Source: Vescimonas coprocola
GTDB taxonomy: Bacteria > Bacillota_I > Bacilli_A > RF39 > UBA660
Assembly (NCBI GenBank): GCA_963660615.1
Contig: CAVKYE010000004.1
Span: 11,465-75,464, forward strand
Direction: 5' to 3'
Length of the DNA stretch: 64,000 bases
Part shown: positions 2,247 through 56,306 of the stretch, in pieces
Numbering within the stretch: the stretch's first letter is position 1
Layout: each line of letters begins with the position of its first letter
Translations under genes and position numbers: made by a program
The notes under the pieces: generated by a model
The model's database searches: none
Told to the model about the DNA's origin: nothing
What the model saw: the letters and a program-made list of their open reading frames with translations, nothing else

Positions 2247-2251
2247 ATCAC

Positions 2252-3339: not shown

Positions 3340-3383
3340 ACTCCTCTATAATAATTCTATCACAAAAATACTAAAAATAAAAT

Positions 3384-8000: not shown

Positions 8001-11000
8001 CACTAACAATAGCTGTATTACCATTACCACCAGCATAAATACTTCCCAAAGACGTTGCATTAGATACATAAACATCAGTATTACCAAGTACAGTACCTAA
8101 ATTACCTCCACCAAATAAATCAGATGAAATACTAGAATTTTTAAAAACAACCTTCGTATTATAATTAACAGTAGCCTTATTACCGCCACCATAAAATTTA
8201 CCAGTCACAGTAACATTAGATACATTAACATTCGTATAATCAGTAGCAGCCTCATTACCTCCACCATAAATATTATTATAAGAACCACCATTCAAATCAA
8301 CAGTTGCAGTTTCCGTAACACCACCTTGATTATTACCACCATAAATATTATCAATCGAAACATCACTAGAAGTAGAAGTAATATTACCACTAGCTACAGT
8401 ACCACTACTATTACTACCACCAAACACAGAAACTGAACTACCAGAAACCAACTCAACATTAGTCTTTGAAACACCAGCCTCATTACCACCACCATAAATA
8501 GAAGTAACAGAAGACCCATTTAACTTAACATTAGAAGTATCAGTAGAAGTTTTATTACCCCCACCATAAACAGAAGTAATAATACCACCATTTAACTTAA
8601 CATTAGAAGTAGTAGTAACACCTCCTTGATTATTACCACCATAAACAGAAGTAATCGTTCCACCATTAATAGAAACATTACTAACAGGAACATCACCAAG
8701 AATATTAGAACCACCATAAACATTTTCGATAGTTCCACCACTAACTAAAACAGAAGTCTTAGAAACAATGCTAGCCTGTTGACCACCACCATAAACAGTA
8801 CCGACCAAACCACCACTAACATTAACATCACTAGTGTCAGTATCAGTAAGCTTACCTCCACCATACAAATTAGTAATCGCCCCAGAACTCACATCAACAG
8901 AAGTAGTAGTAGTCTTACCACCAACATTATTGCCTCCATAAAGATTTGTTACATTTCCACCAGTTACATTAATAGTAGAAGTCTCTACATCTCCGCTTTC
9001 ATTACTACCACCAAAAACATTTGTGCAATCACTACCAATTTGATATACATATGTTTTTGTTACAGCCGTTTTATTACCACCGCCATATGCAGATTCTACA
9101 GTTCCACCATTTAAATATACCTTAACCGTTCCATTTGGAGTTCCTGCCGCATCATTACCACCAAAAGCATTTGTAACTTTACCATTATTTATCGTAAGAG
9201 TAACATCACCAGTTACATATGGTGTATTGCTATCATCACCTTTACCTCCACCAAATACATTATTAACAGTACCACCATTTACATTAACAGCAGTTTTATA
9301 AGAACTTACAGAAGTAGTTTTACTCTTATCATTAACCGTACCATATGCACTTCCACCATATGCTGAACCCGTTAAATTTAAAGAATTAGTACTATCACCT
9401 AAATTTACTGTAACATTTTGTGAAACAACAGTACCACTACCAAGTCCACCACCAAATACATTATTAACACTACCCTTTAATATATCCAAAGTAACATCAC
9501 CGTAAAGTGTTCCTTTTTGATTAGAACCACCATATATTCCACCAGTTACACTACCACCTGTCATCGTTATACTAGTTGGAATACTAACTTGCCATTCTTT
9601 TCCAGAACCACTATTATTTCCAGAACCAAATACCGATCCAATAGTTCCACCTAAAATATTAATACTTACACTACCATTACTGCTAGAATTATAACCAACA
9701 GTTCCATAATTTCCACTACCATATACATTCTTCTTTATTGTAGCCTCATCATTAATAACAATAATTGAATTATCAACCGATCCAATAGTTGCATAACTAG
9801 TATTACCATTTCCAGCACCAAAAACAGAACCACTTTCAGCACCAAACAATGTACTATTATTATTTATATACTCATCATTACCAATAGTAGCCGTTCCACC
9901 AATATAAACATAACTACTTCCAGTTAAAGTACCATCAGAACTAGAACCATCATGACCATTACTACCACCAAAAACACTATAATTAACCGTTCCACCAGTT
10001 ACCTGAATTATTCTATTTCCATAAGTAGTAGATGTTCCAGCACCACCAGTAATCATATCAACTACTCCACCAGTCATATAAATCATAACATCATTTTTAC
10101 TACCCCTACTACTATCAGTAAGCGGACCACCAATCAAATTATAAATATATCCACCTTCTATTTTAGCAGTCTTTGAAGCATAATGAGTCCCAGAATAACG
10201 ACCTCCAACATAAATCCCAGTTGTTAAATCATATTTACTACTTCCAAAAGTTCCACTTTTAACTACAGTATTTAATGCAGCTATATTATCATTATCAGAT
10301 GAATAAATATTAGCATACCAACTACCAGATACACAATAATAAAAATCCAAATAACTATTATTACTTGTAGCCCTGTCATAATCATTACCATATATAGCAT
10401 TCATCTCCGTGTACAAAGATGAACTCCAACCTCGATCATTAGCTCCCGTAGTTGAACTAGCCGAATTATAAAAACCACTTTCAACCATAATAGTAAATCT
10501 TTTAGGATTACTACTACTACCAGTATCAGAACTATCCCAAGAATTAGAAGAATTAGCCCCAGCTATAATTGAATCAAACGTTTTATAACTACCACTTTGC
10601 TTTATACCACGGCCTATTTTAACATTTTGATAATTACCATAAAAAACACCAGAACCACTTGAACTAGAAGTTGGAGCACTTGTAGAATTACTTTTCCGAC
10701 TATTAATAGTCATATTTTCTATTCTTAAAGCACCATAAGCCTTTATAGCAACATTAGAAACAGTCCATGTTGGTTTATAATCCGTACCATTATATATCCC
10801 AGTTAAAGTAAATGGCTTTGATGAAGAAGAACTCCAAGTACTAGAAACATTACCATTCATAACTAAAATATTAGTATCCCTTGTTGTTAAATAATAATAA
10901 TCAGTATTTTCATCAAATAATTCTAAAGAACCATCTGATTTATAAAATTGAATTAATTCATATACCTCACAACCACCACTAGTAGAGCAAGTACCACTTT

Positions 11001-12120
11001 GTAAAACACCAGTATCATTATAATAACCACTAATAGAACTTCTATAATCAACACTAACCTTACGATAATAACCAGCCATATTAGTAGTTGACGTAAAATT
11101 CTTATTTTCCTCTTTGCCTACAACCGTTGCCGTTAAAGAAGCTTCTTCAAAACCATAATAATTATTATAAGTATAATATTTAGCATCCATATCAAAAGTA
11201 TCACTACTAGTTTGTTTATAATATATTTGGCATGTATTTGTATACGTACCTTGACTTTGACCCCAACCAGTATTTGGTGCAGGACATTGATAAGAACTAT
11301 GATAACTACCAGAAGAATCATAACAATTACTACACGTTCCATAAGTAGTATCACCACGTCCCCACCAACCAGAAACAACAGTCTTAGTTGTAATACTATC
11401 TCCTTTATAATAACCTTCAACGCTAGGATAATCATATATATATTTCACAGTATTCACTTTATTCATACCCTTAGTTTTTAACTTACTAATTGCATTATCA
11501 AAAGAATTACTACTATTAACATAAGCAACTTCCCCACTAGTCCAATTAGCATAAAAATTAATATTAATTTTATTTGAACTAACAGGCACTTTAGCACTCC
11601 TAGCGTAATAAGTATCATCATAACTAATAGAAGCACCACTATAATCAGTAATCCAACCATTAAATACCATATCATCAGGATGAGAAGAAAAAGGATTATC
11701 AATTAAATCAATTTCTATATATCCATTATTAACAGGATAATATTTATAGTAAACATACTTACTTTGTTTCTCGCTTAAAGAAACATACCCAGTATTTAAC
11801 CCATTATAATCCGTACCATTATAAGTAATCGTAACCTCTACTAAATTATTATCATTATATAAATTTTTATCAACATTTGTAGGAAGGCTACTAGAACTGC
11901 TACTAGTATAATTTTGACCCGTATAATAATAATAATCACTATCTAAATCATCAACATAAACAGTATCACCAGTAACACCATAAGTAACAGAATCATCACT
12001 ACTAGCACGTAATGATCCATAAGTCAAAGCAATAGAAGTAATAGGAATACATATAGCTAAAAGGACAAGCAAAAAATCTTGTCTATTTCTAAAAAAATTT
12101 TTTAAAATTTTTATAACCAT
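5020..12120 (-). CDS. giant (2366 aa) exported glycine-rich beta-solenoid/adhesin-like protein with SipW-type signal junction
   Basis: Track ORF. N-terminus MVIKILKNFFRNRQDFLLVLLAICIPITSIALTYGSLRASS. About 25-30 modules of about 24 aa centred on [YF]GG[GS]N. No LPXTG, SLH or other anchor recognised at the C-terminus (...GDCETYIIIK). Confidence 0.9.
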   Translation of the reverse strand: MVIKILKNFFRNRQDFLLVLLAICIPITSIALTYGSLRASSDDSVTYGVTGDTVYVDDLDSDYYYYTGQNYTSSSSSSLPTNVDKNLYNDNNLVEVTITYNGTDYNGLNTGYVSLSEKQSKYVYYKYYPVNNGYIEIDLIDNPFSSHPDDMVFNGWITDYSGASISYDDTYYARSAKVPVSSNKININFYANWTSGEVAYVNSSNSFDNAISKLKTKGMNKVNTVKYIYDYPSVEGYYKGDSITTKTVVSGWWGRGDTTYGTCSNCYDSSGSYHSSYQCPAPNTGWGQSQGTYTNTCQIYYKQTSSDTFDMDAKYYTYNNYYGFEEASLTATVVGKEENKNFTSTTNMAGYYRKVSVDYRSSISGYYNDTGVLQSGTCSTSGGCEVYELIQFYKSDGSLELFDENTDYYYLTTRDTNILVMNGNVSSTWSSSSSKPFTLTGIYNGTDYKPTWTVSNVAIKAYGALRIENMTINSRKSNSTSAPTSSSSGSGVFYGNYQNVKIGRGIKQSGSYKTFDSIIAGANSSNSWDSSDTGSSSNPKRFTIMVESGFYNSASSTTGANDRGWSSSLYTEMNAIYGNDYDRATSNNSYLDFYYCVSGSWYANIYSSDNDNIAALNTVVKSGTFGSSKYDLTTGIYVGGRYSGTHYASKTAKIEGGYIYNLIGGPLTDSSRGSKNDVMIYMTGGVVDMITGGAGTSTTYGNRIIQVTGGTVNYSVFGGSNGHDGSSSDGTLTGSSYVYIGGTATIGNDEYINNNSTLFGAESGSVFGAGNGNTSYATIGSVDNSIIVINDEATIKKNVYGSGNYGTVGYNSSSNGSVSINILGGTIGSVFGSGNNSGSGKEWQVSIPTSITMTGGSVTGGIYGGSNQKGTLYGDVTLDILKGSVNNVFGGGLGSGTVVSQNVTVNLGDSTNSLNLTGSAYGGSAYGTVNDKSKTTSVSSYKTAVNVNGGTVNNVFGGGKGDDSNTPYVTGDVTLTINNGKVTNAFGGNDAAGTPNGTVKVYLNGGTVESAYGGGNKTAVTKTYVYQIGSDCTNVFGGSNESGDVETSTINVTGGNVTNLYGGNNVGGKTTTTSVDVSSGAITNLYGGGKLTDTDTSDVNVSGGLVGTVYGGGQQASIVSKTSVLVSGGTIENVYGGSNILGDVPVSNVSINGGTITSVYGGNNQGGVTTTSNVKLNGGIITSVYGGGNKTSTDTSNVKLNGSSVTSIYGGGNEAGVSKTNVELVSGSSVSVFGGSNSSGTVASGNITSTSSDVSIDNIYGGNNQGGVTETATVDLNGGSYNNIYGGGNEAATDYTNVNVSNVTVTGKFYGGGNKATVNYNTKVVFKNSSISSDLFGGGNLGTVLGNTDVYVSNATSLGSIYAGGNGNTAIVSGNTTLTIDNNSVISKHVFGGGNAANTGSKDSTKSISTVNIAGASISGNVYGGANTAILYGKTILNIGSSVDSYVKTNINIGGTVFGGGEANASGDTNYDYSFISVTEGITINIDGNGYKQFDILGSIFGSGNASSTKGYSYINISNYGTFDEYKENISIQRADIVTIKNSAIKLEGTTDRTNEYSNTKFSISRVKELKLANGSTLFLGNGTNLLEKFSSLKISGATEEKASVTIDGDNVTRNVNNRVYMLENKNLNIATNEAVTSYGKVSGMTFFGMYQLDRNGKVSTAFYNNKYNSGDSVLSGEFYSFTSGSYVLGMHTSNHDITKDGFYSNYENEEKASVVQAKYIEPTPSDASYYMWVIGEKVTTYDFSLTASKYSTLGTYELPLTASAGANTIYEIIGFNYQNLEDGFELVSPSSVSRVNNSGTADDRMALSMESSNTGFITKGQTNFLSDSKTPIDGTRDYQAENSSTVPSLLFYLYHSKNITLNREIGTVVISLLAIKPIDDLNNEVTRVNINITLSSALYSDNDYEGAMAAGEKYGLFASTATNITNKSNLSAYYSLYMKSDKQYYQDGYYHALVSDYVFPLNTKLTMIDLANNTYYYYVVSEDDVNRASSEYEKYGECSYNLSNFVAMGSTSSSNNFDESLNNSRYYKSGYVLEEFIFNVSFEDTSISSDVTDKKLLLELRNKNDQTLISVLSIQHSALTYNLYNDSKASIDLSGSINDSKVYLGDTPSLSLNANFTQPLVGSLPVTDTTYFDKKMGVKISIYDNNGNRLNNSSLLGLTYEYKDKVYYPRMDGSVRISVADKVANWYGKIKVNTENLNLSSGTYKFKIEAFGSSDGIYYGSSASSYEIPFTIVDSVYGLNVTLPDDEVVIDSDSGVNVKSTNALDFDTGYSSNLINPSIRVSLYRREYNDLYDTSYVKVNLFDFITNRLDSVSENEYMFISDPDSSSKKTLYLKSTLKSGTYKFVFSLYDGDTFIGDCETYIIIK
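7600..10050 (-). repeat. intragenic tandem array of about 70-80-nt modules encoding the [YF]GG[GS]N repeats
   Basis: On the plus strand, accaccataaa(c/t)a-type cores recur every 70-80 nt (near 8270, 8335, 8490, 8560, 8635, 8715, 8790, 8860, 8935). Adjacent modules 8521..8660 are near-identical. Confidence 0.7.
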
Positions 12121-12141: not shown

Positions 12142-13122
12142 CTATGACGGATTAGTTGTAAACTCCAAATTAAAACTTATATCACCATAAGCTGCATTAT
12201 TCTCACAATCAACATCCTGTCCTTCAATCCACATATAAATACGCAATTTAGAAATACTAGGTTTAATCGTAAGAAGCGAAACATTTTGAGAATTATTCTT
12301 AGGTGTATATGCCTTAACATTAACACGCTTAAACAAATTAGGATATAAATTAGCATTTGCATTTTGAATAAGTACATTATTCCCAGCAGAAATATCACTA
12401 ATAACACCATCATAAGGAAGTAAAGAACCACCAGTTTGAGAAGTAGAAATTCCATAAACCTTACTAGCATTACTAACACCATACTCCGTATGAACATCAT
12501 AATTAGGTTCCCAAATAATAGCCTCACTCGCACCCTTTAAATTTTGAGCAGCTGAAGAACTATCACTAGACCCCTCATTCAAAATAGCCACTCTTGTAGC
12601 ATTTTCAATTCCAGAAGTTTTATCGCCAGTATAAGAAACACTAGAATTACTAGATAAATACAACTCTTTTTCACCACTAATCTTAAAAAATAAATCAAAA
12701 ACAATAAAAGTTCCATCACTATCTTCACCAAAACTAGAAGTTTCCAAAGACTTATTAGCTACTAAAATAAAATCAGTTGACTTATCATTAGTAGCATCAC
12801 CCTTATACATATTTAAAAAACCATTGGAAATCGTACCACCCGTCGAAACAGGATAAATTCTATAAGGAATTTGATTAACACTACCACTATAATTTTTACT
12901 AGCATTCCTAATATCATTAACAGTAATAACCTGTTTCCAATCAACAGCATCAGTACTAACCTCAATACCCCCGTCAGCCTGAACGTGAACATCAAGAGCC
13001 TCAATACTAACAACCCTATTCGCTGAAAACCAAGCATAAGTAGTTGTAATTAAAAGGATAAAACTAAAAAATAAAGGAAAAATAATTAACTTACGTCTTT
13101 TTTTTCTATTTTCTTTCGTCAT
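12142..13122 (-). CDS. TasA/camelysin-like exported protein, 326 aa (large paralogue)
   Basis: Track ORF trimmed to ATG at 13122 (GGAGGAG upstream). MTKENRKKRRKLIIFPLFFSFILLITTTYAWFSANRVVS. C-terminus LRIYMWIEGQDVDCENNAAYGDISFNLEFTTNPS. Confidence 0.8.
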   Translation of the reverse strand: MTKENRKKRRKLIIFPLFFSFILLITTTYAWFSANRVVSIEALDVHVQADGGIEVSTDAVDWKQVITVNDIRNASKNYSGSVNQIPYRIYPVSTGGTISNGFLNMYKGDATNDKSTDFILVANKSLETSSFGEDSDGTFIVFDLFFKISGEKELYLSSNSSVSYTGDKTSGIENATRVAILNEGSSDSSSAAQNLKGASEAIIWEPNYDVHTEYGVSNASKVYGISTSQTGGSLLPYDGVISDISAGNNVLIQNANANLYPNLFKRVNVKAYTPKNNSQNVSLLTIKPSISKLRIYMWIEGQDVDCENNAAYGDISFNLEFTTNPS

Positions 13123-13816
13123 CAGTATGCTCCTCCCTAAATTCCATATTAAGTTTAATTTCACCACCAATAATTGCATCAACACACTCAGCGTCTTCAC
13201 CTTCAAGATAAACAACAACCGTATATTTGTCAACATCAGAAGCTTTCAAAGCCTTTCTCTGCTTTAAAACAGCAACATCTTTAGAAACAAAAGGTACAGT
13301 CCCAACCTCAGCCTTACCAGTTAAACTACTGCTTTTCGCATAAACAGTTTCCTTACCATTTTGGTAAACAATAATCCTAATAGCATCATCAACATTTTTA
13401 ATAACATCAAGAATATTAATTTGATACCAGTAATTAGTAGCCTCCTTCCCCTCATTAGCAATATAAAAAGTATAAGCAATATAATTTTCCCCATTATGAC
13501 TGCCACCATTTGAAGAATCAATATCACTAGGAAGCCAGCTCTTAGTAATATTATCCATAAAAGGGATTTCTTTAGCATATAGCTTATTCTTCGGAGTTTT
13601 TTCATCTAAAGATTCATACAAAACAATATCATTTTTCAAAGTTAAATTAGGATCCAAAGTAACAGTAAAATTACCACCCTTATAAATGACCATAAGCACA
13701 AAGAAAAAACAAAGCAACAAAAGAAATAAAATAATAACAATTCTTCTAATATATTTATATCTTCTTTCACGTTTTTTTAATTCTTCAGCTGTAACCTTAA
13801 CAGTACCTACTCCCAT
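13106..13816 (-). CDS. membrane-anchored paralogue of the TasA-like family (236 aa, single N-terminal TM, no SipW junction)
   Basis: RRIVIILFLLLLCFFFVLMVIY TM segment. C-terminus YTVVVYLEGEDAECVDAIIGGEIKLNMEF aligns with the C-terminus of 12142..13122. First gene after the promoter at 13846..13874. Confidence 0.7.
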   Translation of the reverse strand: MGVGTVKVTAEELKKRERRYKYIRRIVIILFLLLLCFFFVLMVIYKGGNFTVTLDPNLTLKNDIVLYESLDEKTPKNKLYAKEIPFMDNITKSWLPSDIDSSNGGSHNGENYIAYTFYIANEGKEATNYWYQINILDVIKNVDDAIRIIVYQNGKETVYAKSSSLTGKAEVGTVPFVSKDVAVLKQRKALKASDVDKYTVVVYLEGEDAECVDAIIGGEIKLNMEFREEHTDDERK

Positions 13817-13845
13817 ACAATCACGATTCCTTTATTATCAATACA

Positions 13846-13874
13846 ATTTTACCATAAAATGCAAATTTTGTCAT
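13846..13874 (-). promoter_or_regulatory. sigma-A-like promoter of the fibre operon
   Basis: Minus strand reads ATGACA - 17 nt (ending TGG) - TAAAAT, about 30 nt upstream of the ATG at 13816. Confidence 0.5.
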
Positions 13875-13944
13875 AAAATTGCAAAAAAAAGAAACATATT
13901 CAAATAAAAATTTATAAAACAATATTTTTAATATTTAAAATATA

Positions 13945-14259
13945 CTACTTTTTTGTTCTTCTAAGACCAAAGTCAAAAGAAGCATCATCACGAACAAACT
14001 TAATTGACATTGTTTTAAATAAATCATCCAAAGGCAAAGTATCATCAAAATTTTCCCTCTTAGCACCCCTAGCAACACCTTCAACAACCGAAAAGCTAGG
14101 ATATTTAATTTCCACACCATTAATTTTTTTACCACTATTTTTTTTATTAGAAATACTCCCATTAGAATCTGAAGTAGCAGAAACATCTACATGTTTCCTC
14201 CTTATCAAAAAAAGAACAATAATAAGACTAACAACACTAACACATAAAATAACAAACAT
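13945..14259 (-). CDS. hypothetical membrane-anchored protein, 104 aa
   Basis: Track ORF trimmed to ATG at 14259 (GGAGG at 14266..14270, 6-nt spacing). MFVILCVSVVSLIIVLFLI TM segment then a hydrophilic tail. Confidence 0.6.
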   Translation of the reverse strand: MFVILCVSVVSLIIVLFLIRRKHVDVSATSDSNGSISNKKNSGKKINGVEIKYPSFSVVEGVARGAKRENFDDTLPLDDLFKTMSIKFVRDDASFDFGLRRTKK

Positions 14260-14391
14260 AAAAAGCCTCCTATTCACATACAATTCTACCACATATAAAA
14301 AAATTATAAAAAATATAACAACAAAAAAATGCTAAAATTTACACAACTTAACACTTTTAAAAACAAAAATAAAAAACAATCAAAAACAAAA

Positions 14392-14400
14392 TGATATAAT
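14392..14400 (+). promoter_or_regulatory. extended -10 element (TGaTATAAT) for 14426..15007
   Basis: tgatataat 26 nt upstream of the ATG; AAGGAGG RBS follows. Confidence 0.45.
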
Positions 14401-14425
14401 AAAACAAAAAGGAGGCGTAGTAAAT

Positions 14426-15007
14426 ATGACAAAACAGCGAAAAATAAAAATATCAATCGCAGTAATTGCATTAATCATATGCATAAGTCAAATAAGTCAA
14501 ACCTACGCCAAATATCTAGAAACAAAAACAGGGGACACTGACTTTAATATAGCTAAATGGCAAATACTAGTTAATGATAAAGATATTACCGAAGCTACCA
14601 CAATGTCATCATTAATAACACCAGTATACTTAGAAAATGAAAATGTTGCCAAAAATGTCATAGCACCAGGTACAGAAGGATACTTCGATCTTGACATAAA
14701 TGCAGAAAAAACCCAAGTATCATTTCAATACAACATAAATGCTACAAATTCTGAAAATAGTTCTGTAACAGACTTAAAAATAACTGGTTACCAATTAAAT
14801 AATAGCACACTAGTAAATACAAATGAAAGTGAAATAAAAGGCACCATAAACCAAAGTGAAACAAACAAAAAATTAACAATAAGAATATACTTCAAATGGT
14901 TAGATGGAGAACAAGAAACAATGGATAACAAAGAAGATACAAAAGCTTCAGTAAACGGTGAAACAGCGAAATTAAAAGTAAATTTATCATTTACCCAAAT
15001 AGCATAA
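14426..15007 (+). CDS. small exported TasA/camelysin-like protein (SipW-type junction ..ISQTYAKYLET), divergently transcribed
   Basis: 193 aa. AKWQILVN and IAPGTEGYFDLDI motifs shared with 2252..2815. C-terminus LTIRIYFKWLDGEQETMDN...AKLKVNLSFTQIA. Confidence 0.8.
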   Translation: MTKQRKIKISIAVIALIICISQISQTYAKYLETKTGDTDFNIAKWQILVNDKDITEATTMSSLITPVYLENENVAKNVIAPGTEGYFDLDINAEKTQVSFQYNINATNSENSSVTDLKITGYQLNNSTLVNTNESEIKGTINQSETNKKLTIRIYFKWLDGEQETMDNKEDTKASVNGETAKLKVNLSFTQIA

Positions 15008-15048: not shown

Positions 15049-15297
15049 TTAAAAAACAAGCATAAATACAAACAACAAAATAACAAAAAAAACAATTACA
15101 TAAGGTATAAACATCATAACAAAATTTAAAATTTTATGTCTACTTAAAAAACTTTCAAATAAAATTCTAAAAACAATAACAATAAGTATCAAAAAAATTG
15201 AAACAATAATCATATCAAAAATACTACATAAATTATTAATATAATACATAACAACAAACCTTTCTGAAAATAAAAAAGGAATAAAAACATAAACCAC
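15049..15297 (-). CDS. small hydrophobic membrane protein (66-82 aa, about 3 TM)
   Basis: Track ORF starting GTG, sharing one nt with the noc stop (TAGTG). Alternative ATG at 15249 has GAAAGG upstream. No homology recognised. Confidence 0.4.
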   Translation of the reverse strand: MVYVFIPFLFSERFVVMYYINNLCSIFDMIIVSIFLILIVIVFRILFESFLSRHKILNFVMMFIPYVIVFFVILLFVFMLVF

Positions 15298-17168
15298 TAT
15301 TCCTTATTAATTTTAAAAGTAACTTGATAATTCTTATCTAAATCAATTTCATCAACATCAACATAATAACCTAATTTTTCAATCTCGTCCGCACAATTTC
15401 TTATTAAATTAATAACTTCTCTAAAAGAATTATTCGGAGTAGAAACAGCCTTAACATTATTCTCCATCATACTAGGTTGGCTTACAGGAGAACTTGCAGT
15501 TTCAATAATATCAGGTGTAGGAATATTATTAAGATTCTCTTCTGAAATCCTATAATCATCTAAGCCACTACCAATAGAAGAAACATTATTAACACTCTCT
15601 TGCATATTAGAAACAGTAGGTGTACTAGGACTAACCAAAGAATTGGCCTGCACTAAACTATCATTAACAGATGTAACCTCAGGAACAGATTGAGACATAC
15701 CGGAATTAACCGTGCTAAAAGAAGGCGTAACCAAACTAGGTGTCGGTCTAACATCAGAAGAAGATGAAACCAAACTAGGAGTGTTAGTCGCAGATGTAAC
15801 CTCTGGTATAGAAGATGAAACCTCCGGTATAGAACTTATCTCTTGATTATTTAAAGATTTTTGATTCACATAAGCAGAAGAATTACCACCCTCAGTATTT
15901 GCATTCGAACTAGAACCAATAGTATGATAAGCAGGATTAAAACCTTGATTAGAAACCTGACTTTGATTTATACCAGAAGTAACATTAGAGCCAAATCCAG
16001 AAGCCATATTATTTACCTGATTAGAACTAACTTGTCCTCCTACACTTTCTTGAGGTCTTGGCATTCCACCTAAAACATTATTATTAACAGTATTATTAGC
16101 ACCATTAGAATTGTTATCAGGTGTACTAGGTTTCAAATCAGCTGGTGTTTGATTAAAAATACTATCAAAACTAACCGAACCAGAATTAGTCGGTTTAACC
16201 TCAGAAGGCCTTTGTACCTCATTATTTCCATAAGGAATATTAACAAATTTATTATCATTATTAACAGGCGCTGGTGTTGGTGCTACATTACCGCTAGGAC
16301 TAGGCATAGAGGATCCTCTCATAAGTTCAGAAATATCATTAGGTTGCTTAGTCTCATTAATATCGTGAGCCTCCCTCATAATTTTATCAATATCCATAAA
16401 TCCTTTTCCCCTTTCTTCATTCATACTATTATCTTTAGTAAAACTATCCTTTTTAATTTGATTATCAAATAAACTTTCAACCACAGGCTTATCATTTAAA
16501 ACATTAACTTTAACAGGATGACTAATCGTCTTAACAGAAGCACCCACACCATCAGACGGGTTCTCAAGCAAATACTTCTTAATCTCATCATCAGTACGTT
16601 TAACCGTCAAACGCTCACTAATAATCCTTCCAAGCATCATAACCTGAGCATTCCTATTTCCAAGCCTAAGTAAACTTCTTGCATGCCTTTCAGAAATACG
16701 TCCATGCAAAAGCGCATCTTGAACTTGATCATCAAGATTTAAAAGCCTTATCTTATTAGCAATAGTAGACTGAGACTTACCAATCTTTTTCGCAAGTCCA
16801 TCTTGAGTAATATAGCCCATATCCAAAATACGCTTATAAGAAACAGCCTCCTCAATCGCCGTAAGCTCTTGTCTTTGAATATTTTCAAGAAGGGCAATTT
16901 CTTCACTATCCTTATCAGATAAATTTACAACAATAGCCGGAATAGTAGTCCTACTAGCAAGTTTACTAGCCTTAAAACGTCTTTCACCCGCAATAATTTC
17001 ATACTTATTATTAATAGGTCTTACAACAATAGGCTGAATAACACCATATTTATGAATAGACTCCGCAAGTTCCTGAAGCTTAACCTCATCAAAACGAATA
17101 CGCGGTTGAAATCTATTAGGTAAAATATCATTAATATTTAAAACCACTAATTGACCATTTTCGTACAT
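15297..17168 (-). CDS. noc: Noc-like ParB-family protein with long low-complexity insertion (623 aa)
   Basis: Trimmed to ATG at 17168 (GGGAGGGG 7 nt upstream). LPNRFQPR, IIAGERRFKAS, GKSQSTIANKIRLLNL and ISERHARSL resemble B. subtilis Noc rather than Spo0J. Position after rsmG. C-terminus REVINLIRNCADEIEKLGYYVDVDEIDLDKNYQVTFKI resembles the Noc C-terminus. Confidence 0.85.
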   Translation of the reverse strand: MYENGQLVVLNINDILPNRFQPRIRFDEVKLQELAESIHKYGVIQPIVVRPINNKYEIIAGERRFKASKLASRTTIPAIVVNLSDKDSEEIALLENIQRQELTAIEEAVSYKRILDMGYITQDGLAKKIGKSQSTIANKIRLLNLDDQVQDALLHGRISERHARSLLRLGNRNAQVMMLGRIISERLTVKRTDDEIKKYLLENPSDGVGASVKTISHPVKVNVLNDKPVVESLFDNQIKKDSFTKDNSMNEERGKGFMDIDKIMREAHDINETKQPNDISELMRGSSMPSPSGNVAPTPAPVNNDNKFVNIPYGNNEVQRPSEVKPTNSGSVSFDSIFNQTPADLKPSTPDNNSNGANNTVNNNVLGGMPRPQESVGGQVSSNQVNNMASGFGSNVTSGINQSQVSNQGFNPAYHTIGSSSNANTEGGNSSAYVNQKSLNNQEISSIPEVSSSIPEVTSATNTPSLVSSSSDVRPTPSLVTPSFSTVNSGMSQSVPEVTSVNDSLVQANSLVSPSTPTVSNMQESVNNVSSIGSGLDDYRISEENLNNIPTPDIIETASSPVSQPSMMENNVKAVSTPNNSFREVINLIRNCADEIEKLGYYVDVDEIDLDKNYQVTFKINKE

Positions 17169-17255
17169 AAACTGCCCCTCCCTTCTATTCTTTATAATTA
17201 TAATACTATTTTTCGGGAAATAATTCAACAAAAAAACAAAATAAAAAGAAAAAAA

Positions 17256-24208: not shown

Positions 24209-24404
24209 TTATCCACATAGTTTTCCACAGTAAAATACTTTTAGTTACAACATCAAACAAATTTTTTCAACACATGTGGAAATGTAAAACTTTATTCACA
24301 TTGTGGAAATAAATATTATCCACAAATATTGTGGAAATAAACAAAAAAAATAGAAAAATAAAAGAAAAAAGCCTGTGTATATCTTTTTTTTTCACTTTTC
24401 CACA
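24209..24404. promoter_or_regulatory. DnaA-box cluster upstream of dnaA (oriC left part / dnaA promoter region)
   Basis: TTATCCACA at 24209 and 24316; TTTTCCACA at 24221 and 24396; TTATTCACA at 24292; TGTGGAAAT (complement orientation) at 24275, 24302 and 24330. Confidence 0.85.
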
Positions 24405-25894: not shown

Positions 25895-25960
25895 ATTTCC
25901 ACTTTTCCACATTTTCCACACCAATAATAAAAATACATTTAATAAAATAAAAATAAAAGG
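25895..25960. promoter_or_regulatory. DnaA boxes plus AT-rich stretch between dnaA and dnaN (oriC right part, candidate unwinding region)
   Basis: ATTTCCACT 25895, TTTTCCACA 25903 and 25912 in tandem, followed by aataataaaaatacatttaataaaataaaaataaaa. A further TTTTCCACA lies at 27109..27117 just after dnaN. Confidence 0.7.
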
Positions 25961-27092: not shown

Positions 27093-27205
27093 AGGTCTTT
27101 TTTTTCACTTTTCCACACACATATGACAAAATTTGATAAAATTTGACAAAAGAAAAGAGTATAAGAGATGTGTCAGCAAAAACTGACAAGAAAGGGGGAT
27201 TTGGT

Positions 27206-27661
27206 ATGATCGATAAAGATATATACGAAATCAATAAAAATACATGTGCTATAATAGCCACAGAAAATAACAAAGCAAAGGTAATAGAAACAGAAAACAC
27301 AATAGTTTTAGAAACCAAAACACTTGATATAATGAAACGAAGTTGTGAATACTATGGTAGTACATTAGAAGGTAGAGTAAAGGGAAGTAAATCCCAATTA
27401 GGTATGAGATATAAACTTCCAGTAATTGTTGAAGAAAGTAAAGAAATAATCTTTTTTCCAACAACCTCGCTCTCTCAAAAAGACTGCAGTTGGATAAATT
27501 TAAAAGCCATAAAATCATATGAAAAAAAAGAATTTGGTGTTTCTGTAACCTTTGAAGGGAATTACGAACAAATAATTCCTATATCTTATGATTCATTTGA
27601 AAATCAGGTATTTAGAGCCACAAAGCTATTATTAATTCTTCAACATCGAAAAAATAATTAA
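27206..27661 (+). CDS. comK: competence transcription factor ComK family
   Basis: Trimmed to ATG at 27206 (AAGGGGGA upstream). RSCEYYGSTLEGRVKGS, IIFFPTTSLSQKDCSWIN and IPISYDSFENQVFRA align with B. subtilis ComK (RSCRFFGSSYAGRKAGT, IFLFPTLSSTRPQCGWIS, LPISYNSFENQVYRT; recalled from memory). Confidence 0.88.
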   Translation: MIDKDIYEINKNTCAIIATENNKAKVIETENTIVLETKTLDIMKRSCEYYGSTLEGRVKGSKSQLGMRYKLPVIVEESKEIIFFPTTSLSQKDCSWINLKAIKSYEKKEFGVSVTFEGNYEQIIPISYDSFENQVFRATKLLLILQHRKNN

Positions 27662-30850: not shown

Positions 30851-33295
30851 ATGGATCATAGTAGAGATAGATTAGAAGAAAACAACATAGTAAATGAAAT
30901 AGAAACTTCATTTCTAGAATACTCAATGAGTGTTATCATTTCAAGAGCCTTACCAGATCTAAGAGATGGACTAAAACCAGTACATAGAAGAATATTATAT
31001 TCAATGTATGAATCAGGGTATACACCAGATAAACCTCATAAAAAAAGTGCTAGAATAGTCGGAGACGTAATGGGAAAATATCACCCTCATGGGGATTCAA
31101 GTATTTATGAAGCCATGGTTAGAATGGCACAAGATTTTAGTTATAGAAACATGCTAGTAGATGGCCACGGAAACTTCGGAAACATTGAAGGTTACGGAGC
31201 CGCCGCAATGCGTTATACAGAATCAAGATTATCAAAAATAGCCTTAGAATTATTAAGAGATATCAATAAAGACACTGTTGATTTCACACCAAACTTTGAT
31301 GAATCAGAAAAAGAGCCCTCAATTTTACCATCAAGATTTCCAAATATATTAGTAAATGGAACCATGGGAATAGCCGTAGGAATGGCTACAAATATTCCCC
31401 CACACAACTTAGGAGAAGTAATAGAGGGATGCATTGCCTATATTGATAATCCTGAAATAGATACATCAGGACTAATGCAATACATAAAAGGCCCAGACTT
31501 TCCAACTGGAGCCATAATCCTTGGTAATAGTGGAATCAAAAAAGCCTACGAAACCGGAAAAGGAACAATAACCATAAGAAGTAGAGCTAGAATAGAAGAG
31601 GCAAATGGTAAACAATATATAATCATAGATGAAGTACCATATGGCGTAAACACCTCAGAATTAAAAAATAAAGTAGCTGATCTAGTACATTCAAAAGTAA
31701 TAGAAGGAATTTCAGATTACCACACCGACTTAAAAGATGGAATTAAAATCACCATAACCTTAAAAAAAGATGCCAATGCCCAAATAGTATTAAACAATCT
31801 TTATAAACACACCCAATTCCAAACAAACTATGGAATAACACTCTTAATGTTAGATAATGGTGTACCCAAAACTCTAGGATTAAAAGACATAATTTCAAAA
31901 TACATCGATTATCAAAAAGAAATAATAATCAGAAGAACAAAATATGATTTAAGAAAAGCAGAAGCTAGAGTTCACATATTAGAAGGACTCAAAATAGCAC
32001 TAGACAACATAGATGAAATAATCAAATTAATTAAAGCCGCCAAAGGCGACGATGAGGCCAGAAAACAACTAATGGAAAGATTCCATTTAACAGAAATACA
32101 AGCTAATGCCATTCTAGAAATGAAATTAAGAAGATTAACGGGCTTAGAAAGAGCAAAAATCGAAGCCGAATTAGCCGACTTATTAGAGAAAATAAAATAT
32201 TATAAAGAAATACTAGCATCGGAGCAAAAAGTATTAAATATAATCAAAGAAGAATTATTAGAAATAAAAAATAAATACAGTGATGATAGACGAACAGAAA
32301 TAGATATGACAGCAATAGATTATATAGAAGATGAATCACTAATACCTGTGGAAAACATCGTAATAACTTTAACAAATAATGGTTATATAAAAAGAACAAC
32401 AAGCGAAACATATAAAACGCAAAATAGAGGCGGAGTAGGAATTAAAGGAATGACTACAAACGAAGATGATTTTGTGGAAAAACTAATATCGATGACAACA
32501 CATGATTATATAATGTTCTTCACCAACAAAGGAAAAGTATATAGATTAAAAGGATATGAAATCCCACAATACAGCAGACAATCAAAGGGATTGCCAATAA
32601 TAAATCTTTTACCATTAGAAAAAACAGAACACATAAAAGCCATGTTAAAAGTAGAAAAAGAAGAGAAAAACAACTATATTGTATTTTGTACACAAAACGG
32701 TTTAGTAAAAAGAACATCATTATCAGAATTCGAAAACATAAGATCAAACGGTAAAATTGCAATAACATTAAAAGAAACAGATGAATTAATATCAGTAATG
32801 AAAACAACTGGGGAAAACGAAGTAATTATAGCCGCATCAAATGGTAGAATGATAAGATTTGTGGAAAACGAAATAAGAATAATGGGAAGAACAGCATCCG
32901 GAGTAAAAGGAATAGACCTTGGACAAGATGGAATTTGCGTAGAATGTGAAATAGCAGAGCCAGAACAACAAATATTAGTAGTAACAGAAAATGGTTATGG
33001 AAAAAGAACAAATATTGAAGAATATAGAATGACTCATAGAGGAAGCAAAGGAGTCAAAGCACTAAACATAACCGAGAAAAATGGAAATATAGTTGCATTT
33101 AAATTAGTAAATGGTGACGAAGACTTAATGATAATAACAAATAGTGGAATAATAATAAGACTATCAGTAGACCAAGTATCAACAACCGGTAGAGTAGCCC
33201 AAGGCGTAAGATTAATTCATTTAAAAAATGAACAACAAGTAAGTAATGTAGCACTATTAGCTAAAGAAGAAACTATAGAAACCGAAGAACACTAA
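30851..33295 (+). CDS. gyrA: DNA gyrase subunit A
   Basis: 814 aa; [24 protein letters not shown] active-site Tyr region. Confidence 0.98.
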
Positions 33296-33302
33296 AAAAT
33301 TA

Positions 33303-33341
33303 AATAAGATATCGATTTAAAACATCATATCTTATTTTTTT
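33303..33341 (+). terminator. rho-independent terminator of gyrA
   Basis: aataagatat ... atatcttatt 10-bp stem followed by a T-run. Confidence 0.7.
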
Positions 33342-33464
33342 GTGTAAAAAAAAATAAGGAACAAAAAACAAAATAGTGGATAATTAAACATAATAAAAAA
33401 TAATATTGTGGAAAACAGGGTTAAAAGTGCGAAAAAGACAAGAAAAAGTCAAAATACAAAAAAA

Positions 33465-34432
33465 TGTTTCACGTGAAACATGCAATTAACATTAATAAGA
33501 AGGAATAAAAAAAATTAAATAAAACATTCAAGAACAATAAAGTAAGCATGAATTCAAAATACAAAATATAAGTATACTTTTGCAAATGAAACATTATATA
33601 CATAATTACTAACCATTGTGTAAAAAATACATATGTTTCACGTGAAACATATAAAAAATTGAATTATTATACTGAAAAAGATTTGTTAAAATAATAGAGT
33701 TGTATATTAATTACATAATATACAAGGTATAATATGTAAAAAAACGAACATTTCATATGGAAACACTCTAAAATTAAATTGAATAAGGTCTAATACAATA
33801 CAAAATGATGTTTCACATGAAACATCTACAAAGTATTTTTTATATAATACAAAAATGTATTATATAAGTAATATTTTAATTGATGATTTTTTAATAATCG
33901 ACGTTTCACATGAAACATTGAAATTATAAAAAAACTAAAATAAAGATAAAAATAGTTAAAAGAAAAAGAATTTAGATATTATTAAACATTTTTAGTATAA
34001 ATAATATAAGTATATTTATGAATTTTACGTTCAAAAGCATTATATATATTTAATGTAGTAATTTTTAATTATTATTATTACTATTATAAAAAATTATGTT
34101 TCACGTGAAACTATGGTTATGTTAAAAGATAAATATTATTTGTTATTTCGATAGAAAAGTGACTAAAAAAATCAAAGAACTGATTAAAATTATATTTTTT
34201 ATGAATAATATACATTTGTTTAGTGAAAAAATTCTAGTCCAATCATATAAAATTGAATAAAAGCTAGTATTTATGGGTTAATAGTATATGTTCCACGTGA
34301 AACATATAGAATAAATAAATTAAAAATAATCGAATAATGTATTGGCAAAAATAAGAAAGTAGATAAAAATTGTGAATAAAATGATTAAATATATATAAAA
34401 AATACACTTACAAATATGTTTCACGCGAAACT
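33465..34432. repeat. array of 7 parS-like 16-bp palindromes (plus 1 degenerate copy) in non-coding DNA
   Basis: TGTTTCACGTGAAACA at 33465 and 33634; TGTTTCACATGAAACA 33809; CGTTTCACATGAAACA 33902; TGTTTCACGTGAAACT 34097; TGTTCCACGTGAAACA 34289; TGTTTCACGCGAAACT 34417; degenerate CATTTCATATGGAAACA 33749. B. subtilis parS consensus is TGTTNCACGTGAAACA. Confidence 0.85.
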
Positions 34433-34484
34433 ATGAAAAATACACATAATATATATAAAAAAATCAAATAACAGGCATTATAGA

Positions 34485-34513
34485 TTGCATTTTTAGGTAA
34501 AATGATGTAATAT
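34485..34513 (+). promoter_or_regulatory. sigma-A-type promoter of the SRP RNA gene
   Basis: TTGCAT - 17 nt - TAATAT, 6 nt before the G at 34520. Confidence 0.6.
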
Positions 34514-34519
34514 GAAAAA

Positions 34520-34592
34520 GGTACAACATTTATATCTGAACCAGGTCAGAATCGGAAGATAGCAGCCTTAAGGATCCCTAAGTGTGTGTACC
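34520..34592 (+). ncRNA. ffs: small (about 73 nt) signal recognition particle RNA
   Basis: ACCAGGUCAGAAUCGGAAGAUAGCAGCC matches the SRP domain IV motif (GGAA tetraloop closed by AUC/GAU, conserved AGCAGCC/CCAGGUCAG). Terminal helix GGUACA...UGUACC. Synteny with tadA-dnaX-ybaB-recR, as scr in B. subtilis. Confidence 0.8.
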
Positions 34593-34610
34593 TTTTAATT
34601 AGGTGATAAT

Positions 34611-35015
34611 GTGGAAAAATATATGCAATTAGCCATTTTAGAAGCAAAAAAATGTAAAAAAACAGACGACGTCCCAGTTGGAGCAGTTATTGTTGAAAAT
34701 GGAAAAATTATAGCCAAAGCTCATAATACAAAAGAAAAAACAAAATCAGCAATAGCACATGCCGAAATAAATGCTGTGGAAAAAGCATGCAAAAAAAAGA
34801 AAAATTGGCACTTAAATGAATGTGAAATGTATGTCACACTAGAACCATGCCCAATGTGCCTAGGAGCCATAAAAGAAGCAAGAATAAAAAAAGTGACATA
34901 TGCAGTCTCAAGAGACAAAAAAAACACCCTTAACAATCCAAAAATGATCCTAGGAACCCAGACCAAAGAATCAAAAACAATACTCAAAAGCTTTTTCGAA
35001 AACAAGAGGAAATAA
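34611..35015 (+). CDS. tadA: tRNA-specific adenosine deaminase
   Basis: 134 aa; HAEINAV and PCPMCLGAI zinc motifs. GTG start after AGGTGA (alternative ATG at 34623). Confidence 0.93.
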   Translation: MEKYMQLAILEAKKCKKTDDVPVGAVIVENGKIIAKAHNTKEKTKSAIAHAEINAVEKACKKKKNWHLNECEMYVTLEPCPMCLGAIKEARIKKVTYAVSRDKKNTLNNPKMILGTQTKESKTILKSFFENKRK

Positions 35016-54652: not shown

Positions 54653-55438
54653 ATGGGAAAAATAATAGCATTAGTAAATCAAAAAGGTGGAGTAGGAAAA
54701 ACAACAACAAGCATCAATCTATCAGCATCCCTAGGAACCCTAGGCAAAAAAGTATTGCTAATAGACCTAGACCCACAAGGTAACAGTACCACAGGACTAG
54801 GAATCGAAAAAGGCGACATAAAAAGTAGTATCTATGACCTTTTAACCGACAAAGCCGAACTAAAAGATGTAATAAAGAAAACAAAATTTAGAAACCTTTA
54901 CATCATCCCCGCAACAATAAGCCTAGCCGGAGCAGACATCGAACTAATGGAAAGAAGTAGAATGGATCCAACATTCACAAAAAACAGTCAACTAAAAAAA
55001 CATCTAGAACTCGCAAGCCCAATGTTTGACTACATCCTAATAGACTGCCCACCATCACTAGGCATTCTAACCACCAACGCCCTAACCGCTGCTAACTCAG
55101 TAATAATTCCCGTACAGTGTGAATTTTTCGCTCTAGAAGGAATAATGCAACTATTAAACTCAATCATGTTAGCCCAAAAAACCCTAAATCCATCATTAGA
55201 CATCGAAGGCGTATTACTAACAATGTTAGATAATAGAACAAACCTTGGATTAGAAGTAGTACAAGACATAAAAAGCTATTTCAAAGAAAGAGTATATGAT
55301 ACCATAATTCCAAGACTAGTAAGACTATCAGAAGCCCCAAGTCATGGAAAACCAATAATTGCTTATGACCCAAAAAGTAGAGGAGCTGAAGCATACTTAA
55401 ACTTAGCCAAAGAGGTGATGAATAGAAATGGAAAATAA
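54653..55438 (+). CDS. parA: chromosome partitioning ATPase ParA/Soj
   Basis: 261 aa; NQKGGVGKTTT deviant Walker A. Confidence 0.96.
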   Translation: MGKIIALVNQKGGVGKTTTSINLSASLGTLGKKVLLIDLDPQGNSTTGLGIEKGDIKSSIYDLLTDKAELKDVIKKTKFRNLYIIPATISLAGADIELMERSRMDPTFTKNSQLKKHLELASPMFDYILIDCPPSLGILTTNALTAANSVIIPVQCEFFALEGIMQLLNSIMLAQKTLNPSLDIEGVLLTMLDNRTNLGLEVVQDIKSYFKERVYDTIIPRLVRLSEAPSHGKPIIAYDPKSRGAEAYLNLAKEVMNRNGK

Positions 55439-56306
55439 AAAAAGAGCCCTAGGTAAAGGCCTAGAACAATTATTTGATTTAGAAAACTTAAACGTCGACA
55501 ACGTAAGTAATTTTGAAAAACAAATATACGAAGAAACAAAAGGCGAAGAAATAATCGAACTTAATGTAGATGAAATAAGACCAAACCCATATCAACCAAG
55601 ACACATATTCAACGAAGAAGCCCTAAAGGATCTAGCAAATTCCATCAAAGAAAATGGCGTATTTCAACCAATAATCGTCAAAAAAAGCATAAAAGGATAT
55701 GAACTAATAGCCGGAGAAAGAAGACTAAGAGCAAGTAAAATGGCTGGAAAAACAACAATACCTGCCATAATTCGCCAATTATCAGATGATAAAATGGCCG
55801 AAATAGCCCTTCTAGAAAACCTTCAAAGAGAAAACCTAAACGCCCTAGAAGAAGCCATGGCCTATAAAAGCCTAATAGATAAATTAGGCATAACCCAAGA
55901 AGAACTATCAAAAAAAGTCAGCAAAAGCCGTAGTCATATCACCAACATGATAGGATTACTTAGACTACCAAACGAAGTACAAGAAATGATAGCCGACAAA
56001 AAAATAACCATGGGTCATGCAAGAGCCCTAAGCAAACTAGAAAATGAAGAAGAAATAATAAATATGGCTAAAGACATAACAGAAAACAGCCTACCAGTCC
56101 GTGAAATAGAAAAAGCTTCAGAAAATTCAGCAAAAAAAATAGTCCAACACCGCATCAAACCAACAAACGAATATGCTTATGTTGAAGACTTAATAAGAGA
56201 AAAACTAGACACCAAAATAAAAATAAAAAATAATAAAATAGAAATATCCTTCACCAACACAGCCGATTTAAACCGTATATTAGAAATATTAAATATAAAG
56301 GAATGA
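55428..56306 (+). CDS. parB: chromosome partitioning protein ParB/Spo0J
   Basis: 292 aa; RPNPYQPR, LIAGERRLRAS, SRSHITNMIGLLRLP, GHARAL. Confidence 0.96.
   Translation: MENKKRALGKGLEQLFDLENLNVDNVSNFEKQIYEETKGEEIIELNVDEIRPNPYQPRHIFNEEALKDLANSIKENGVFQPIIVKKSIKGYELIAGERRLRASKMAGKTTIPAIIRQLSDDKMAEIALLENLQRENLNALEEAMAYKSLIDKLGITQEELSKKVSKSRSHITNMIGLLRLPNEVQEMIADKKITMGHARALSKLENEEEIINMAKDITENSLPVREIEKASENSAKKIVQHRIKPTNEYAYVEDLIREKLDTKIKIKNNKIEISFTNTADLNRILEILNIKE

Follow-up and report, generated by a model that had tools for sequence, protein, structure and literature searches.

The gyrA-ffs gap

The subject of this study is an array of parS sites, the 16-bp palindromes of the ParABS partition system, that lies in the non-coding gap between gyrA and ffs (the gene for the small signal-recognition-particle (SRP) RNA). 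The array was analyzed in a 64-kb stretch of contig CAVKYE010000004.1, which is called “the window” throughout. The gap extends from the gyrA stop codon (33295) to ffs (34510-34607), and the flanking genes are co-oriented. The features at its borders are as follows.

30851-33295, plus strand: gyrA, an 814-residue open reading frame (ORF) that forms the upstream border of the gap
33302-33341, plus strand: plausible intrinsic terminator of gyrA, an AT-rich hairpin followed by a T-run (RNA folding energy of -9.7 kcal/mol)
34485-34513, plus strand: probable ffs promoter (TTGCAT, 17 nt, TAATAT), read from the sequence
34510-34607, plus strand: ffs (small SRP RNA), the downstream border of the gap (Rfam RF00169, 61.8 bits)
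34611-35015, plus strand: gene for a tadA-like deaminase

DNA_topoisoIV and DNA_gyraseA_C domains were found on a protein identical to the GyrA of the window. The terminator hairpin had a z-score of -3.6, and none of 200 shuffled sequences folded as well. The probable ffs promoter was missed by the promoter consensus scan.

The original prediction for this DNA, made from the sequence, had held that no credible ORF is present between the gyrA terminator and the SRP RNA promoter. This was borne out by the composition of the ORFs in the gap, all of which were short (at most 47 residues), of low complexity, and AT-driven. At an Rfam E-value of at most 1, no RNA family other than ffs was detected in the gap, and promoter-like sites were not in excess there (11, compared to 14.9 expected). 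A hidden gene or RNA was rejected on these three grounds. The gap was also recovered in an independent assembly (Logan SRR13434598) with 100% identity over 1505 bp, and for this reason it is not regarded as an assembly artefact; that possibility was likewise rejected by a closed long-read genome of a relative, which contains a 24-copy array.

parS sites in the window

The entire window was scanned with the consensus TGTTNCACGTGAAACA, allowing at most two mismatches, and the scan was then rerun at three mismatches. Seven 16-bp sites with 0-2 mismatches were located between 33465 and 34432. They account for 14 strand-matches at two mismatches in the window, versus 0.09 ± 0.35 expected by chance. 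Outside the gap the window yielded no such site, the number to be expected by chance being 0.1-0.2. The sites, and a decayed copy among them, are the following.

33465-33480: parS-1, TGTTTCACGTGAAACA, exact, within an 18-bp perfect palindrome (33464-33481)
33634-33649: parS-2, exact, within a 22-bp perfect palindrome (33631-33652)
33749-33765: decayed parS copy, CATTTCATATGGAAACA, with substitutions and a 1-nt insertion, read from the sequence
33809-33824: parS-3, TGTTTCACATGAAACA, one mismatch (the central CG is changed to CA)
33902-33917: parS-4, CGTTTCACATGAAACA, two mismatches
34097-34112: parS-5, TGTTTCACGTGAAACT, one mismatch
34289-34304: parS-6, TGTTCCACGTGAAACA, exact with respect to the N-containing consensus, one mismatch with respect to TGTTTCACGTGAAACA
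34417-34432: parS-7, TGTTTCACGCGAAACT, two mismatches

The T5C variant represented by parS-6 is the second most common site type in the clade of relatives described below. Intact sites are irregularly spaced, 93-195 bp apart, and neither Tandem Repeats Finder nor a repeat search detected a tandem structure or a shared unit in the array beyond the 16-24-bp core. No further parS site was present in the window, the interior of parB included, even at three mismatches. The coordinates and mismatch counts originally predicted for the seven sites were thus all reproduced. The decayed eighth copy at 33749, the 18- and 22-bp palindromes around the first two copies, the irregular spacing without a longer repeat unit, and the lack of parS in parB and the remainder of the window were all confirmed as well.

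Conservation of the array in relatives

Relatives were identified by using the C-terminal domain of GyrA as a query against species-representative genomes (GTDB), and the loci were limited to 10 kb on either side. The search returned 57 loci (L numbers below) from a clade of uncultured Bacilli with 68-87% identity, together with seven outgroup loci from Clostridia. The labels of the relatives include “Firmicutes bacterium CAG:822”, “CAG:884”, and “Candidatus Coprosoma”, and the clade is one that we take to be an RF39-type group. A literature search on parS in RF39-type bacteria yielded no relevant match. All clade counts refer to 58 genomes (the 57 species-representative loci plus the window); relatives were considered informative if the contig extended beyond gyrA (n = 56).

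The gene order gyrA-gap-ffs-tadA-dnaX-recR was kept in the relatives, and parS sites were present in the gyrA-ffs-tadA gap of all 56 informative ones, with 1-24 sites each. None was found in the seven Clostridia loci. Across the 58 genomes, 298 parS sites were located in 38.4 kb of gyrA-tadA gaps and four in 910 kb of flanking sequence, i.e. densities of about 7.8 and 0.004 per kb, respectively. All four flanking sites are directly past tadA. Complete gaps had a median of five sites, and 32 of 39 had at least three. The comparison of the gyrA-ffs spacer in relatives that had originally been proposed therefore revealed the array in every informative genome. It had also been proposed that similar densities of the palindrome at many loci would mark it as a generic repeat; as far as the window and the 10-kb flanks of the relatives extend, the palindrome is confined to a single spacer, apart from the four outliers past tadA.

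Positions 2-4, 6-11, and 13-15 of the core were at least 99% invariant among 300 sites of the clade, whose logo reads A-TGTT(T/C)CACGTGAAACA-T. The recurrent variants in the same 300 sites (T5C, A12G, and A16T) are non-compensatory, which is to be expected of a protein-binding site but not of an RNA or DNA hairpin. When the gap was compared to the 64 loci using blastn, only short matches were obtained, most of them centered on parS, and the spacers could not be aligned between species. With the exception of DnaA boxes, no spacer element was conserved across species. The combination of conserved sites, unconserved spacers, and a fixed syntenic locus is the strongest in-silico evidence that the array is functional.

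In one sub-clade (L034, L036, L038, L039, L040, L042, and L050), ffs is located inside the array, with parS on both sides.

Origin region and the ParB-family proteins

The window represents a Bacillota-type origin region from an uncultured Bacilli lineage of about 30% G+C that is related to CAG:822 and Ca. Coprosoma. Its gene order is rnpA, a DnaA-box cluster, dnaA, two boxes, dnaN, a ComK-like ORF, recF, gyrB, and gyrA; to the right of gyrA, the array is followed by ffs, tadA, dnaX, and recR. The features pertinent to the origin and to partition are these.

24209-24404, plus strand: DnaA-box cluster upstream of dnaA (left part of oriC), five boxes with 0-1 mismatch
25903-25920, plus strand: pair of adjoining DnaA boxes in the dnaA-dnaN interval (right part of oriC)
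54653-55438, plus strand: parA/soj, a Walker-type ATPase (Pfam AAA_31, 5e-66, and CbiA; Walker A motif KGGVGKT)
55428-56306, plus strand: parB/spo0J, whose product presumably binds the array as its cognate protein (ParB_N, 9e-36; HTH_ParB, 9e-35)
15297-17231, minus strand: Noc-type ParB paralogue adjoining rsmG, a 644-residue ORF (Pfam ParB_N and a helix-turn-helix)

The DnaA-box clusters on both sides of dnaA are 7.5-10 kb to the left of the array, whose location is thus origin-proximal. parA overlaps the start of parB, and both are 20 kb from the array. The distances first given (8-10 kb to the DnaA boxes, 20 kb to parAB) hold with this small adjustment.

The best match of the window's ParB among solved structures was B. 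subtilis Spo0J (6sdk, 4e-58). The protein carries GERRLRA, which conforms to the cytidine triphosphate (CTP) motif GERRxRA, and ENLQRE. Four positions that determine specificity have been described as RTAG in ParB and QKKR in Noc (Jalal et al. 2020, PMC7383237). In the window's ParB these residues are R-M-R-G; R173 and G201, which are parS-type, are retained, and positions 179 and 184 differ from one ParB protein to another.

The Noc-type paralogue near rsmG did not figure in the original prediction. Against solved structures it matched Noc at 3e-57 and Spo0J at 7e-45. It carries KSQSTIANKIRLL, the recognition helix of Noc, and the four specificity positions read Q-K-N-R; these residues are of the type that recognizes the Noc-binding site (NBS), with Q at 173, K at 179, and R at 201. 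After ParB_N and the helix-turn-helix comes a low-complexity linker of about 400 residues, rich in S, N, and P, and then a short domain at the C terminus. The protein has no obvious counterpart of the amphipathic helix that B. subtilis Noc has at its N terminus.

No NBS (ATTTCCCGGGAAAT) was found in the window at one mismatch or fewer. One NBS-like site with two mismatches (ATTTTTCGGGAAAT, 17208-17221) is located at the 5' end of the Noc-type gene; this is a chance-level occurrence. The array sites are parS-type and do not conform to ATTTCCCGGGAAAT, and perfect copies of the latter were found at other positions in the relatives. Judging from these sequences, ParB and the Noc-type paralogue seem to recognize different sites, and it is to ParB that the array was assigned for that reason.

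Two further observations were made on NBS in the relatives. A perfect ATTTCCCGGGAAAT is located ca. 6.6-7.8 kb downstream of the end of gyrA in about 17 of them (e.g. L027 at 17919, L043 at 18236, and L053 at 17769), which suggests that its position is conserved. NBS-like sites (ATTTCCTGGGAAAT or perfect NBS) were also present in the gaps of most members of the sub-clade in which ffs is inside the array, as well as in those of L044-L046 and L049, often near the edge of the array.

Array forms and turnover

Two forms of the array occur in the clade: dispersed sites with unique AT-rich spacers, as in the window, and strict tandem repeats. One tandem array was observed in the closed long-read 1.26-Mb genome mentioned above (L056, OZ006994.1), in which 24 perfect 26-bp units (AACAATGTTCCACGTGAAACTAAATA) occupy positions 10935-11559, between gyrA and ffs. 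In other relatives the tandem units are 28, 36-39, 57, and 63 bp (37-39 bp in L002, L005, and L028). Higher-order repeats were present as well, namely a unit of about 230 bp with two sites in L001 and one of about 400 bp in L006. The site spacing did not exhibit helical phasing, as the tandem periods of 26, 28, 36-39, and 63 bp were not consistent multiples of ca. 10.5 bp.

Loss of sites was evident in a comparison of L007 to L022. The 3' ends of gyrA in these genomes are 97% identical. L007 differs from L022 by 3-4 substitutions at each of two sites, both of them intact in the latter (alignment columns of about 490-510 and 855-875); an example is the change from CACGTGAAAC to CATATAAAAC. The spacer around the decayed L007 sites is about 92% identical to that of L022. 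The decay in L007 looks locally accelerated after site loss, or it may have resulted from a multi-base event. The birth-and-decay turnover that the original prediction had deduced from graded mismatches is supported by these decayed sites and by the segmental and tandem duplications.

The gyrA-ffs gap is also a recurrent break point in assemblies. In 19 of the 58 genomes (among them L002, L005, L014, L017, L018, L020, L028, L033, L035, and L045), the contig ends inside the gap, in most cases at most ca. 60 bp, and often fewer than 25 bp, from a parS copy. A metagenome-assembled genome (MAG) of the window's own species, GCA_963652445.1, is broken within the gap, too. Because these contigs end inside the array, the copy numbers in the gap-broken genomes are underestimates. 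As short-read MAGs break there repeatedly, the array is a useful landmark for annotation and for scaffolding the origin region.

DnaA boxes and extended palindromes

Three DnaA-box-like sequences were located in the gap of the window.

33375-33383, minus strand: DnaA-box-like 9-mer, TTATCCACT, one mismatch
33407-33415, minus strand: DnaA-box variant, TTTTCCACA, the same variant as in the oriC of this genome
34371-34379, minus strand: DnaA-box-like 9-mer, TTATTCACA, one mismatch; this variant is also present in oriC at 24292

These three one-mismatch boxes compare to 0.35 expected in simulations; in the whole window, 49 boxes were counted versus 21 expected. The spacers of the clade contained 51 DnaA-box 9-mers (at most one mismatch) compared to 8.9 ± 2.9 in Markov simulations, although these counts are concentrated in about 12 related genomes of the 58 and are not phylogenetically independent. 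In an unbiased scan of 8-mers, TTTTCCAC(A) was the sole clearly enriched motif outside of ffs (25 occurrences in 12 genomes, about 0.9 expected), and its enrichment in the spacers of the relatives was 26-33-fold.

Boxes with the sequence TTATCCACA or TTTTCCACA are interleaved with parS at fixed offsets in L003, L006, L008, L010-L012, L052, and L059. A start 16 nt upstream of parS was the most common arrangement (12 cases); seven boxes on the reverse strand were at +34. The former arrangement was found at exactly 16 nt in L003, L006, L008/L052, and L010; in L011 and L012, a reverse-strand box is located about 20 nt downstream of parS. The boxes are conserved, unlike the 7 nt that separate them from parS. 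Separately, 11 minus-strand copies of TTTTCCACA (read as TGTGGAAAA on the plus strand) were counted between 26906 and 36282 of the window. Most of these copies are intragenic, and they constitute a strand-biased local excess in the ca. 10 kb that adjoin oriC on its right.

Many parS sites in the clade are embedded in longer palindromes. At least four additional paired nucleotides per arm were found for 91 of 260 unique sites, versus about 13 expected, and the z-score for arm pairing reached 8.5 at flank positions 3-4. The extended perfect palindromes are 24-38 bp long (e.g. in L003, 2977-4011), and their outer arms differ from copy to copy yet remain complementary. One possible explanation is template-switch “correction” next to a perfect palindrome in DNA that is free of constraint, of which they would be a by-product; another is selection for a cruciform or hairpin.

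Interpretation of the array

Taken together, the sequence data indicate that the array is very probably an origin-proximal, ParB-loading chromosomal centromere. It is probably the principal centromere of the genome. The attributes of a ParABS centromere that were found are the match to parS, a cognate ParB, an adjacent ParA, proximity to the origin, and conservation of the sites in relatives. A dedicated centromere had been suggested at the outset, and that suggestion is now supported by canonical sites, by ParA and ParB in the window, and by a syntenic array in 56 relatives.

The array would operate as follows. ParB dimers (55428-56306) would recognize each 16-mer via their helix-turn-helix, bind CTP at GERRxRA, close into a clamp, and slide onto the DNA on either side. 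The partition complex formed in this way would extend over the oriC region, 7.5-10 kb to the left. If B. subtilis and other species are a guide, it would stimulate ParA/Soj (54653-55438) in the segregation of origins and bring in SMC. The presence of multiple sites in one transcription-free, co-oriented spacer would raise the loading rate, and the loading locus would stay single. The array remains at its syntenic position throughout the lineage and yet turns over rapidly, with new sites arising by tandem or segmental duplication and old ones decaying via GC-to-AT changes. We infer ParB binding, CTP-dependent spreading, and the roles of ParA and SMC at the array from the evidence above, and presumably no comparable parS cluster exists elsewhere in the genome.

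Several points weigh against this interpretation. The parS scan covers 64 kb of this genome and 10 kb on either side of gyrA in the relatives, and further parS sites may lie at a greater distance from the origin. Some relatives have just one or two sites, and multiplicity may not be required for that reason. Further, three of the seven sites in the window (33809, 33902, and 34417) are altered in the central CACGTG and may bind weakly; the array of the window looks like an old, diverged one in which these three sites have been weakened.

The multiplicity of sites could also be explained if only one or two of them matter and the rest are satellite-like DNA of neutral copy number, multiplied around a strong palindrome by slippage during replication or by unequal recombination, in the sole sizeable non-coding spacer near the origin. 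We regard this as unlikely. In its favor, the same locus holds anywhere from 1 to 24 sites depending on the species, the 26-39-bp tandem repeats of some arrays are perfectly homogeneous, and sites are lost quickly between near-identical genomes. However, the dispersed arrays keep near-consensus 16-mers amid spacers that have diverged to chance-level similarity, which points to purifying selection that acts on several of the sites one by one; the median of five sites and the 32 of 39 complete gaps with at least three also argue against neutrality. A composite origin-control platform, in which parS and interleaved DnaA boxes couple initiation to segregation, is rather improbable. It might take the form of a DnaA-titrating cluster or of a meeting place of ParB/Soj and DnaA. 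The 51 boxes in the spacers with their preferred offsets to parS, the sole enrichment of TTTTCCAC(A), the three boxes in the window's gap, and the retention of boxes across a variable 7-nt interval all favor such a platform, but the boxes are from about 12 related genomes, so that their counts are not independent, and those in the window are not adjacent to parS. Moreover, tandem-type arrays such as that of L056 lack boxes, and DnaA boxes are generally enriched near origins, as the 49 in the whole window (21 expected) illustrate.

It is very unlikely that the palindromes serve as hairpins of DNA or RNA instead of as ParB sites, be it as cruciforms, as bidirectional terminators, or as signals for replication or recombination. 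Although variable complementary arms extend the palindromes by at least four additional pairs per arm in 91 of 260 cases, and a terminator-like hairpin was scored at one site on the minus strand, the 16-mer core is invariant and identical to universal parS, its variants break the pairing, and a T-run is missing after most copies. The extended arms would, from what is established about template switching, be explained equally well as its mutational by-product. REP-like intergenic repeats and terminator hairpins were rejected as candidates, given the confinement of the palindrome to one spacer of the DNA scanned and the invariance of its core. We attach hardly any probability to the notion that the array is bound by the Noc-type paralogue (15297-17231) or is what remains of the centromere of a plasmid or phage that has integrated. 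The Noc-like gene does belong to the ParB family and resides in the same origin region, and canonical parS triplets do exist on mobile elements, e.g. phi29-like phages. The paralogue, however, has the NBS-type Q, K, and R, the array sites are parS-type, and perfect NBS sites are separate in the relatives; Noc was rejected as the binder of the array on the specificity residues and the separate sites. A recent mobile insertion is ruled out because the gap lacks a credible ORF and synteny is conserved across the 58 genomes, and a mobile-element relic was rejected on the same basis.

A bolder version of the centromere interpretation was also considered, namely that all ParB loading has been consolidated in one fast-evolving, satellite-like centromere that co-recruits DnaA in part of the clade and in which the extended palindromes are functional in loading. 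In this combined form the idea is doubtful. If it were true, the lineage would have a centromere with a fixed locus, one to at least 24 copies, and units homogenized within genomes; initiation control would be coupled to segregation, and the extended palindromes would aid loading, e.g. via cruciform extrusion.

Comparison with known systems

According to Anchimiuk et al. (PMC8357415, with reference to Livny 2007), parS sites are clustered within 5-40 kb in most bacteria, and scattering is limited to a few lineages, Bacilli among them. Myxococcus xanthus has 24 parS sites, most of them within about 3 kb and ca. 30 kb from oriC (PMC3778016; bioRxiv 10.1101/2021.05.05.442810). The present array resembles that of M. 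xanthus, which nucleates one compact ParB peak, in being a dense, origin-proximal chromosomal cluster of canonical 16-bp sites. Unlike the Myxococcus cluster, which is directly upstream of parAB, it is located 20 kb from parAB in the gyrA-ffs spacer; it also belongs to a reduced, low-GC Bacilli lineage and varies among related species from 1 to 24 sites, either dispersed or in strict tandem.

Metagenomic contigs were scanned for at least three canonical parS sites with a period of at most 54 bp, which yielded at least 120 contigs of very diverse G+C content. Among the matches listed, the cluster is beside parA, rsmG, or mnmG in about 70 of 120 contigs and is of the gyrA-tadA type in six of 120; about seven unrelated contigs in the same list have 7-15 parS sites within 1.2 kb. 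The larger clusters on unrelated contigs include 15 sites that occupy 1 kb and are located ca. 1 kb upstream of dnaA (L158, 1044-2027, GC 0.35), 29 sites in 6.2 kb (L157, 105-6157, GC 0.51), and 11 sites in 0.9 kb (L185, 1306-2172, GC 0.50). The triplets near rsmG and parA of many bacteria are similar to the present array, in that several canonical parS sites share one origin-proximal intergenic spacer. They differ from it in usually comprising 3-5 copies over 70-350 bp that adjoin parAB, compared to seven copies over 1 kb away from parAB.

The premise of the original prediction that tandem centromere arrays are typical of plasmids was overstated: chromosomal clusters are common outside Bacilli, as in M. 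xanthus and in metagenomes, and the premise is too strong because clustered chromosomal parS sites are known from Myxococcus and abundant in metagenomic contigs. Clustered chromosomal parS is thus already known, and it is in position and size that the array described here differs.

With B. subtilis, the window shares the parS consensus (including T/C at position 5), a ParB whose closest solved homologue is Spo0J, and the possession of Soj and a Noc paralogue. The eight origin-proximal sites of B. subtilis are spread over about 0.75 Mb, whereas all sites detected here are in one non-coding spacer. In the F-plasmid centromere sopC, 12 copies of a 43-bp unit are arranged as direct repeats, and SopB binds to a 16-bp inverted repeat in each of them (PMC3177203). 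The tandem arrays of the relatives (L056, L002, L005, and L028) are comparable in that a short direct repeat contains one 16-bp palindromic site, and head-to-tail repetition of this kind was found with units of 26, 28, 37-39, and 63 bp. It was not found in the window, whose array is not tandem. Also unlike sopC, the sites are chromosomal, have the universal chromosomal parS sequence, and are paired with a chromosomal ParB.

Several aspects of the array are distinctive. A Bacilli group departs from the scattered layout of B. subtilis, its array is uncoupled from parAB, and the arrays of the clade are unusually large and fast-changing. An uncultured, abundant gut lineage gains a defined centromere and a prediction of the site at which ParB and SMC act. 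With 1-24 sites at a fixed locus, the clade offers a natural experiment on multiple parS sites and on the birth, homogenization, and loss of arrays.

Additional observations

Bacteriophage phi29 has five parS sites and uses the Spo0J of its host (PMC2731898). A scan of viral contigs detected phi29-like phages of about 12 kb with parS triplets near both ends. They resemble the present locus in having canonical parS copies, and they differ from it in that phage sites hijack the host, whereas the array is at a conserved chromosomal locus without mobile-element genes. These podophage contigs (L068, L085, L098, L112, and others) are from IMG/VR, mostly from sample 3300045988, and encode a protein-primed PolB, a Gp16 ATPase, a connector, and a phi29-type capsid protein. 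Their triplets are spaced at 28-39 bp and are located about 150-250 bp from both ends; there is also one internal site. The arrangement fits the known hijacking of Spo0J by phi29.

Elsewhere in the window, a giant ORF of 2366 residues (5020-12120, minus strand) had no Pfam match, and the same was true of ORFs within 1127-4904 and 12142-15007. The ComK-family ORF noted above (27143-27661, plus strand; Pfam, 2e-38) occupies the slot that is taken by a small S4-like gene in other Bacillota.

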